This document shows positions 1,930-4,710 of a stretch of DNA of 7,183 nt, piece by piece. The stretch's first letter is position 1; each line of letters starts with the position of its first letter. The translations under genes were made by a program, and so were the position numbers. The notes below the pieces were generated by a model, which did no database searches, was not told the DNA's origin, and saw nothing but the letters and a program-made list of their open reading frames with translations. Source of the stretch: a virus (taxonomy: Duplodnaviria > Heunggongvirae > Uroviricota > Caudoviricetes); the IMG/VR virus record IMGVR_UViG_2706794673_000003; one strand, written 5' to 3'.

Positions 1930-3283
1930 TTTCTGGACTATGCGGGCACGTAACAAAGTGCTTTATGGTGGTCGGTCATCGTCAAAATCATGGGATGCCG
2001 CTGGCATTGCCATATTTCTGTCGAATAAATACACCCTGCGTTTTTGTTGTGCCCGTCAGATCCAGAATAAAATCGAAGAGTCGGTGTATACCCTGCTCAA
2101 AATTCAGATAGACAGGTTTGGTCTGCGGCACCGTTTCCGTATTCTGAACAACAAAATCATTAACCGGGTTACTGGCTCGGAATTTGTTTTTTATGGATTA
2201 TGGCGCAACATCGAAGAAATTAAGTCACTGGAGGGGATCGATGTGTTGTGGCTGGAAGAAGCCCACGCACTGACGGAATACCAGTGGAAAATTCTGGAGC
2301 CAACGATCCGTAAAGAGGGTTCGGAATGCTGGTTCATATTCAACCCCGGACTTGTTACTGATTTCGTCTGGCGCAACTTCGTTGTTGATCCGCCCGAAGG
2401 CACTCTCATCCGCAAAATTAACTATGACGAAAATCCGTTTCTGTCTGACACCATGCTTAAGGTTATCGACGCGGCGCGACGCCGTGATCCGGATGGTTTT
2501 AAACATGTGTATGAGGGCGTTCCGGAGTCTGATGATGATGCGGCAATCATCAAACTGTCTTGGATAGAAGCCGCAGTGGATGCGCACAAAACGTTAAATT
2601 TCGAACCCAGTGGAAGAAAGCGTATTGGCTTTGACGTGGCTGACAGTGGTACAGATAAGTGCGCTAACGTTTACCGTCACGGATCCGTTGTTTTCTGGGC
2701 CGACGAATGGAAGGCCAAAGAAGATGAATTACTGAAGAGCTGCCAGCGTACTTATCAGGCGGCGCTGGAGCGTGAAGCAGATATTGTTTACGACTCTATC
2801 GGTGTTGGTGCGTCTGCCGGTGCTAAATTCTCTGAAATTAACGCTGACCGGAAGAGCGAGAACGCATACGCGCGACGTGTGAATTACCAGAGGTTTAACG
2901 CCGGTGCTGGTGTGCATGAGCCAGATGACGAGTACAACGGCATCCCCAACAAAGACTTTTTCGCAAATCTTAAGGCTCAGGCATGGTGGCTGGTGGCTGA
3001 CCGTTTCAGAAATACGTTTAACGCCATTAACAACGGAGAACAGTATCCTGTGGATGAGCTGATCAGCATAGATTCTCGTTGTCCGTTGCTTGAAAAGCTG
3101 AAACTGGAACTGACAACACCTCATCGTGATTTCGACCGTAACGGACGTGTGATGGTCGAAAGTAAAAAAGACCTCGCAAAACGCGAGATACCGTCACCAA
3201 ACGTTGCTGATGCATTCATTATGGCCTTCGCGCCAATCGATACATCGCTGGATATCTGGGAACAGCTGGGGAGACAGGCCTGA
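1880..3283 (+). CDS. terL: Terminase large subunit (PBSX/Terminase_3-like ATPase plus RNaseH-like nuclease)
   Basis: Deviant Walker A (LYGGRSSSKSW) and Walker B-like (IDVLWLEEAH) motifs, with nuclease-domain acidic motifs (IGFDVADSGTDK, ADAFIMAF). Start is ambiguous: ATG 1880 (GGAGAG at 1864-1869) or ATG 1862. The ORF-track start at 1772 is an upstream extension through terS. Stop TGA at 3281-3283. Confidence 0.9.
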   Translation: MTSTLTSKPTLNPALRSFWTMRARNKVLYGGRSSSKSWDAAGIAIFLSNKYTLRFCCARQIQNKIEESVYTLLKIQIDRFGLRHRFRILNNKIINRVTGSEFVFYGLWRNIEEIKSLEGIDVLWLEEAHALTEYQWKILEPTIRKEGSECWFIFNPGLVTDFVWRNFVVDPPEGTLIRKINYDENPFLSDTMLKVIDAARRRDPDGFKHVYEGVPESDDDAAIIKLSWIEAAVDAHKTLNFEPSGRKRIGFDVADSGTDKCANVYRHGSVVFWADEWKAKEDELLKSCQRTYQAALEREADIVYDSIGVGASAGAKFSEINADRKSENAYARRVNYQRFNAGAGVHEPDDEYNGIPNKDFFANLKAQAWWLVADRFRNTFNAINNGEQYPVDELISIDSRCPLLEKLKLELTTPHRDFDRNGRVMVESKKDLAKREIPSPNVADAFIMAFAPIDTSLDIWEQLGRQA

Positions 3284-4710
3284 TGGCACGAAACAAACAA
3301 GCCCTGCGGCGAACTGTGCAGGCCACAGCTGATGGTTATGAGAATTTTATTGCCCGCGTAGGGATGCAGACACCTAACCAGCACTCAGCATCCACCTACC
3401 GGGCTAATTTCACCAGTCGTAACCGCATGCTGGTGGAATGGTCCTATCGTTCATCCTAGATCATCGGCGAAGCAGTCGATGCTATCCCGGATGATATGAC
3501 CCGCAAAGGCATTCGCATCACTTCGGAAATTGATGCAAAAGATCGTGGCATTCTCGAATCACAACTGGATGAGTTGCAAATCTGGGATGCGCTGAATGAC
3601 GTGCTGAAATGGTCGCGCCTCTACGGCGGCGNNNNNNNNNNNNNNNNNNNNNNNNNNNNNNNNNNNNNNNNNNNNNNNNNNNNNNNNNNNNNNNNNNNNN
3701 NNNNNNNNNNNNNNNNNNNNNNNNNNNNNNNNNNNNNNNNNNNNNNNNNNNNNNNNNNNNNNNNNNNNNNNNNNNNNNNNNNNNNNNNNNNNNNNNNNNN
3801 NNNNNNNNNNNNNNNNNNNNNNNNNNNNNNNNNNNNNNNNNNNNNNNNNNNNNNNNNNNNNNNNNNNNNNNNNNNNNNNNNNNNNNNNNNNNTAGAGCGT
3901 ATCTGGGATCGTCTTACCGCGTTCGACAGCGCTACTGTCGGCGCGGCGCAGCTGGTCTACAAGGCGCATTTGCGTACCTACAGCGTGGAGAAGCTACGCG
4001 AGCTTATCGCACTTGGTGGTCCTGCGTATGAAGCGTTGCTGAAGAATATCGACCTGATTCGACAGTTCCAGAGTAATGAAGGCATGACGCTCATGGACTC
4101 GCGGGATAAGTTTGAAACCCATCAGTACAGCTTCAGTGGTCTGGATGACATCCTTTCGCAGTTTGTAGAACAGATTAGTGGCGCTGTTGGTATCCCACTG
4201 GTGCGGTTGTTCGGACAGTCCCCGAAAGGATTTTCTACCGGTGATGCAGACCTTGCCAACTATTACGATCGCATCAGTTCGTTGCAGGAGAGGCGTTTAC
4301 GTCTTCCGGTGCGGCGGATACTGGACATCATGCATCGTTCGGAACTTGGCAAGCCGCTGCCGGACGATTTCACGTTTGAGTTTAACCCGCTCTGGCAAAT
4401 GTCTGATGTCGATCGCTCAACGGTGGCGTTAAACACCACCAACGCAATCAGTACGGCGCTGGGTGATGGTCTGATGACACTGAAAGCCGCTATGACTGAT
4501 TTGCGAGAAAATTCTGACGTAACCGGCATCGGGGCATCCATTACCGACGAGGACATCGAGAATGCCGAAGATGAAGCGCCGCCCGGCATCGGCGAACCTG
4601 ATGACGAACCGCAGGAGCCGTCAGGCGGAAATCCGGTATCGAACCAGCCTACGCAGGATAGCGAGGGCGGTCGGAGACATCGTAAATGGTCGCTACGATG
4701 GTTCAAATGA
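3283..4710 (+). pseudogene. Portal protein gene, disrupted as assembled: in-frame TAG at 3457-3459 and a 261-nt N gap at 3632-3892
   Basis: ATG at 3283 overlaps the terL stop (TGATG). Frame 1 reads MARNKQALRR...NRMLVEWSYRSS, then TAG, then IIGEAVDAIPDDMTRKGIRITS..., continuing in the same frame to TGA at 4708-4710. The tail is acidic (EDEAPPGIGEPDDEPQEPSGG), and the gene sits between terL and a MuF-like gene as in SPP1-like head modules. The longest uninterrupted piece is 3496..4710. Confidence 0.6.
3632..3892. other. Assembly gap (run of 261 N) inside the portal gene
   Basis: Contiguous n characters from 3632 to 3892; the length is a multiple of 3 so the flanking portal frame is formally preserved, but the true length and content are unknown. 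Confidence 0.99.

Follow-up and report, generated by a model that had tools for sequence, protein, structure and literature searches.

The portal gene of a Shigella sonnei prophage lies, in broken form, on IMG/VR virus record IMGVR_UViG_2706794673_000003 (Duplodnaviria; Heunggongvirae; Uroviricota; Caudoviricetes). The whole stretch of 7,183 nucleotides was analysed and is termed the window. With high probability the gene is a fixed nonsense pseudogene in a defective, decayed prophage and a product of ordinary genome decay. A G-to-A transition at position 3458 converted the conserved Trp59 codon TGG into an amber codon, and in every S. sonnei copy read a C-to-T transition has made a second TAG out of the Gln126 codon CAG. 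Translation from 3283 is predicted to end after 58 residues, before almost all of the portal domain (residues 55-402), and therefore no dodecameric portal would be made. Re-initiation at Met72 (ATG 3496) could yield a peptide of at most 54 amino acids. The mutations would be neutral decay, the element itself having ceased to form particles.

Amber codons in the portal reading frame

The terL stop codon TGA (3281-3283) shares its A with the portal start codon ATG (3283-3285). Frame 1 from 3283 comprises 58 sense codons (MARNKQ...EWSYRSS), reaches TAG at 3457-3459 (3283 + 58x3 = 3457) and continues in the same frame as IIGEAVDAIPDDMTRKG. The coupled start and the in-frame stop had been claimed in a preliminary description of this DNA, and both are read directly in the sequence. 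The list of open reading frames (ORFs) holds 3283..3459 (58 aa) and 3496..4710 (404 aa) for this region.

Megablast against complete E. coli genomes identified prophages with up to 99.9% identity to the window. In the E. coli prophage relatives, an unbroken gene for a 488-aa "DUF1073 domain-containing protein" starts at the terL stop. The closest intact homologues are from E. coli VL40 and FDAARGOS_943 (WP_000113499.1, 488 aa). Over 3283-3631, a single base differs from their alleles, position 3458 being A in the window and G in both homologues. The frame across the TAG is, on the evidence of the sequence, not a chance ORF, because the intact homologues are identical over this range except for base 3458. 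The ancestral codon at the site is TGG (Trp59), also present in Z1323, and the substitution is G3458A. TGG had been named as a possible ancestor, and the residue occupying this position in intact portals was to be determined by alignment; it is the tryptophan encoded by TGG. Of 80 IMG/VR relatives with 95-100% identical portals, three are S. sonnei contigs and the other 77 are non-sonnei loci. All 76 non-sonnei loci that cover codon 59 have TGG there, and codon 126 is CAG in 77 of 77. TAG occurs at both codons only in the three S. sonnei contigs. No in-frame stop interrupts any of the 76 non-sonnei loci that span the complete gene, and the remaining locus is a copy from Shigella dysenteriae cut by the insertion sequence (IS) IS1. 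A separate small gene upstream of a portal starting at the position of 3496, which would have spoken against a broken gene, is contradicted by these relatives, since all 76 read straight through.

A run of 261 N occupies 3632-3892 inside the ORF 3496..4710. The flanks of this run are 300 bp apart in every matching genome, compared with 261 N in the window, and the portal gene spans 1428 bp instead of 1467 bp because the 261 N stand in for these 300 bp. The missing bases correspond to positions 8350-8649 of an S. sonnei locus (L008). They contain a second in-frame amber codon, Gln126 CAG to TAG, in all S. sonnei copies read cleanly. It is located at L008 8376-8378 and would, without the shortening, be found at 3658-3660 of the window. 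The frame survives the run only because the shortfall of 39 bases is divisible by three. What looks like one "long portal ORF" from 3496 is an artefact, produced by the run of N together with this in-frame shortfall. The preliminary description had the frame continue beyond the first TAG into that ORF; the frame is indeed the same, and the ORF passes over an N-run that hides a second TAG in S. sonnei. The portal gene is evidently in three pieces, not two, and gene callers split the S. sonnei portal into products of 58, 54 and 360 aa, the second fragment being called at 8214-8378 in the S. sonnei loci L004-L012. The second stop is probably present in the genome of this window as well, as the flanks of the N-run are 100% identical.

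Profile tests were performed on the intact allele, which differs from the S. sonnei gene at three bases. It matches PF06381 (Phage_portal_3, formerly DUF1073) with 355.4 bits (cut-off 33.8) over residues 55-402, TIGR01555 (HI1409 family) with 255 bits (cut-off 196) and phrog_146 "portal protein" with E=1e-174. Among solved portals, it resembles those of Pam3 (8hds, E=2.2e-37) and E217 (gp19; 8fvh, 9b41; E=1e-14), and Trp59 is aligned to a conserved tryptophan in both. A portal or HI1409-family identity is agreed by Pfam, PHROGs, PDB and NCBIfam release 20. The head module has the order terS, terL, portal, Mu F-like gene, DUF2213 gene and cement protein gene, placing the portal between terL and the Mu F-like gene and near an E217 gp24-like cement gene. 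Unlike the Pam3 and E217 portals, the copy in the window is broken at codon 59, and in all identical genomes also at codon 126, so that no uninterrupted full-length portal frame exists and no such protein can be encoded. By its sequence, this copy is a pseudogene of the portal family and not a functional member.

Several database entries touch on this gene. Some RefSeq homologues of 3283-4710 are named 'anti-CBASS protein Acb1 family protein', which is likely a misnomer on a portal. The 54-aa family phrog_28295 ('unknown function') matches the stretch between the two ambers, residues 72-125, over positions 1-54 of 54, and may have been built from this pseudogene fragment. The families phrog_12751 and phrog_15615 look like further portal fragments.

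Occurrence and origin of the nonsense alleles

Apart from the N-run, five of the fetched S. sonnei loci match the window with 100% identity, among them that of strain 53G (HE616528.1, the accession behind NC_016822, cited in PMC7373316). The same TAG allele occurs in at least 10 independent S. sonnei assemblies, complete chromosomes included, and both ambers are found on four IMG/VR contigs. The exact 58-aa product was present in 2737 blocks of an assembly collection, where it is named a Shigella sonnei protein. The exact 58-, 54- and 360-aa fragments were each located on at least 1000 contigs, named Shigella sonnei. Fragments had already been deposited, e.g. as UniProt Q3Z426_SHISS and as "putative bacteriophage protein [Shigella sonnei]". 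No TAG was present in 142 complete E. coli genomes matching a 61-mer around the site; all matched with 98.4% identity, i.e. one mismatch. An exact-pattern scan of the GTDB species representatives for the amber allele gave no match, perhaps as S. sonnei is not among the representatives. Among the matches listed for deposited phage genomes, terL was only about 81% identical (Klebsiella phages) and no informative portal match appeared.

The TAG is, as judged from these assemblies, a real lineage-wide allele, fixed across S. sonnei. A sequencing or assembly error, with G as the true base at 3458, had been considered in the preliminary description. The N-run in the same gene does show that the record is imperfect there. 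An error is nevertheless extremely unlikely and was rejected, given the identical allele in the S. sonnei assemblies and IMG/VR contigs and the spread of the 58-aa product.

The S. sonnei portal differs from the VL40/FDAARGOS_943 allele by three changes only, Trp59 to stop, Gln126 to stop and A308V. All three are G:C-to-A:T transitions and, by comparison with an outgroup and with 77-78 other loci, derived in S. sonnei. Four sites over 6.6 kb are private to S. sonnei: 686 (synonymous, in the dedA-like gene), 3458, the hidden equivalent of 3658, and 4166. All four are G:C-to-A:T transitions, and three of them lie in the portal. Exact-sequence look-ups found a 125-aa product, with Trp59 intact and a stop at codon 126, on three Logan contigs. 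The intact 488-aa allele with Val308 was found on one contig, and a 417-aa product from Met72 with Ala308 on another single contig. These sequences hint that A308V came first, followed by the stop at codon 126 and then by the stop at codon 59.

A reassigned or programmed TAG would turn both codons into sense codons or read-through sites and allow a full-length portal. One of the two TAGs replaces glutamine, which is also what recoded phages insert at TAG; the other replaces tryptophan instead. Both TAGs are derived single-base changes with respect to 99.8% identical alleles. The five other head and packaging genes contain no in-frame TAG, terS and the Rz-like gene end in TAG, and no suppressor tRNA is encoded nearby. 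The probability left for such recoding is vanishingly small.

Decay of the prophage

The state of the element was assessed by comparing S. sonnei 53G with the fuller prophage of VL40. Upstream of the window, an IS2 is inserted into the 3' end of the holin gene. At the other end, IS1 starts at 7095 and takes the place of everything from codon 2 of the major capsid (DUF2184) gene onward, so that only the first 4-5 bases of this gene are homologous to the VL40 prophage. IS1 transposase genes come next in all S. sonnei loci, and chromosomal genes are located past IS1. About 16 kb with the capsid, neck, sheath, tube, tape-measure and baseplate genes of VL40 are absent at the S. sonnei locus. The terS, terL, Mu F-like, DUF2213 and cement genes are still full length, as expected because the clone is young. 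The derived stop, the repetition of the allele in independent assemblies and the further inactivating lesions in the element all mark the portal gene as a nonsense pseudogene in a defective prophage. Of the explanations offered in the preliminary description, a real inactivating lesion through prophage decay is borne out by the ancestral TGG, the fixation in S. sonnei and these further lesions. Its argument from the essential role of the portal in DNA packaging has become moot, the prophage already being a remnant.

Related prophages are damaged elsewhere. In FDAARGOS_943, an IS2 is inserted into terL and the Mu F-like gene has an internal stop; in VL40, IS150 and IS2 are inserted into tail genes. 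Both are IS-riddled, yet their portals are intact, and therefore different prophage copies decay at different genes. The S. dysenteriae portal was cut independently by IS1 near codon 103 (positions 1-130 of the IMG/VR contig L019, which matches the protein of S. dysenteriae Sd197 with 100% identity over the portal C-terminus). A Gln126 amber shared with Sd197 was suspected because that strain has a fragment of 360 aa with the same initial Met. It was rejected, as codon 126 is still CAG in S. dysenteriae and the gene is interrupted by the IS1.

The preliminary description had also proposed a conditional amber ('sus'-type) allele, in which the prophage is functional in a host with an amber suppressor tRNA reading through the TAG. 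Both stops are amber, the class suppressible by supD/E/F-type tRNAs, and the second is at a glutamine codon, exactly restorable by a supE-type tRNA. However, two stops would have to be read through for each of 12 subunits. The window contains no tRNA of any kind, and the 16 kb surrounding the S. sonnei gene contain none with a CUA anticodon. Both terS (1927-1929) and the Rz-like gene (367-369) end at a genuine TAG. Suppression would be unable to rescue the phage, whose holin gene is interrupted and whose major capsid and tail genes are missing from the locus. A literature search on natural amber suppressors in Shigella revealed nothing relevant. Dependence on a suppressor host is thus very unlikely.

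Some observations count against the favoured reading of a portal pseudogene in neutral decay. The second amber is hidden by the N-run in the window and is deduced from the identical genomes. The five neighbouring head and packaging genes are full length and carry zero S. sonnei-private substitutions, so that decay is not uniform. The location of three of four private substitutions in the portal is a mild excess, which pure neutrality does not predict and which is not significant when ascertainment is allowed for.

An adaptive knock-out would account for this excess by selection for loss of the portal in the ancestor of S. sonnei and a sweep of the nonsense alleles, the portal being harmful or sensed by a portal-recognising defence protein. 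The three substitutions fall in 1.47 kb out of 6.6 kb and include two nonsense changes, although only 49 of 794 possible G:C-to-A:T transitions in the portal (6.2%) create a stop. S. dysenteriae, moreover, has lost the same gene independently through IS1. Against this stand the tiny counts and the fact that the finding was picked for its stop codon. Given one nonsense change in the portal, a further one would arise in the remaining two portal changes with a probability of about 0.12, and both other head-module changes would fall in the portal with a probability of about 0.06. A second stop adds nothing after the first, late genes are expressed only after induction, and IS insertions in decayed Shigella prophages are common anyway (PMC7373316). 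No defence gene came to light, though no search aimed at one was made. Selected loss is decidedly unlikely. If true, it would be consistent with a cost of carrying the portal of a resident prophage, e.g. as the trigger of a portal-sensing immune protein.

Ordinary decay of a defective prophage agrees with what is known of Shigella, whose genomes degrade through deletions, nonsense mutations and IS elements and, in the reference genomes, contain at least 199 pseudogenes each (PMC7373316).

Gene content and comparable systems

The features of the window are compiled in Table 1. Long overlaps exist between terS and terL (50 nt, 1880-1929) and between the portal and the Mu F-like gene (110 nt, 4601-4710); the RefSeq homologues are annotated alike. 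The E. coli relatives also share the gene for a DedA / VTT-domain membrane protein, which appears to be moron-like cargo of the prophage, separate from the lesion.

Table 1. Coordinates of genes, portal fragments and other features in the window
Feature	Position	Strand	Remarks
Rz-like lysis gene	TAG stop 367-369		stop read in sequence
DedA / VTT-domain gene	458..970	-	PF09335; RefSeq name 'DedA family protein'; between lysis genes and terS
terS, intact, TAG stop 1927-1929	1165..1929	+	phrog_370 E=7.5e-95; no S. sonnei-private substitutions
terL, 467 aa, intact, stop TGA 3281-3283	1880..3283	+	PF04466 131.5 bits; RefSeq homologues 'PBSX family phage terminase large subunit'
Portal pseudogene (PF06381 / TIGR01555 / phrog_146)	3283..4710	+	1428 bp here; intact form 488 aa, 1467 bp
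Portal fragment 1, codons 1-58 and amber	3283..3459	+	
Amber codon TAG, Trp59 in intact alleles	3457..3459	+	
Portal fragment 2, visible start (Met72 onward)	3496..3631	+	only 54 aa in S. sonnei, ends at second amber
N-run	3632..3892		261 N for 300 bp
Portal C-terminal part, codons 217-488 and TGA	3893..4710	+	holds Ala308Val, C to T at 4166
Mu F-like head morphogenesis gene, 247 aa, intact	4601..5344	+	PF04233; homologues annotated alike
DUF2213 head protein gene, 406 aa, intact	5348..6568	+	PF09979 145 bits
Head cement / minor capsid gene (E217 gp24-like), 168 aa, intact	6572..7078	+	PF23982 and PF22758
Major capsid gene remnant ATGAG, five bases	7090..7094	+	homology to VL40 prophage ends 4 nt into DUF2184 capsid gene
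IS1 end	7095..7183		L008 11851-12618 99.7% identical to annotated IS1A of VL40

The cryptic prophages of E. coli K-12 represent a case comparable to the S. sonnei remnant. Laboratory amber (sus/am) mutants are known in morphogenesis genes of the phages lambda and T4. As in these mutants, the S. sonnei alleles affect an essential head gene through transitions from TGG to TAG and from CAG to TAG, and they are formally suppressible. Unlike the mutants, they arose in nature and became fixed in a lineage of bacteria; there is no evident suppressor, and other essential genes are missing from the element. The pseudogenes of degraded Shigella prophages are alike in the fixation of point nonsense mutations in a clonal, host-restricted lineage and in IS insertions and truncation (Hawkey et al., 2020; PMC7373316). 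Nothing essential separates the present case from these; its peculiarity is the presence of two ambers and one missense change in one gene, in contrast to the other 4.5 kb of head-module genes without a private change. No paper was found on this particular portal codon or pseudogene.

The S. sonnei portal pseudogene is nothing new in kind and belongs to an already known type. Its fragments are annotated as separate "bacteriophage proteins", and the record calls for caution, as a stretch of N is able to conceal a second lesion and to create a false long ORF. The biological weight of the finding is little: a lineage whose genomes are known to degrade has yet another fixed pseudogene.

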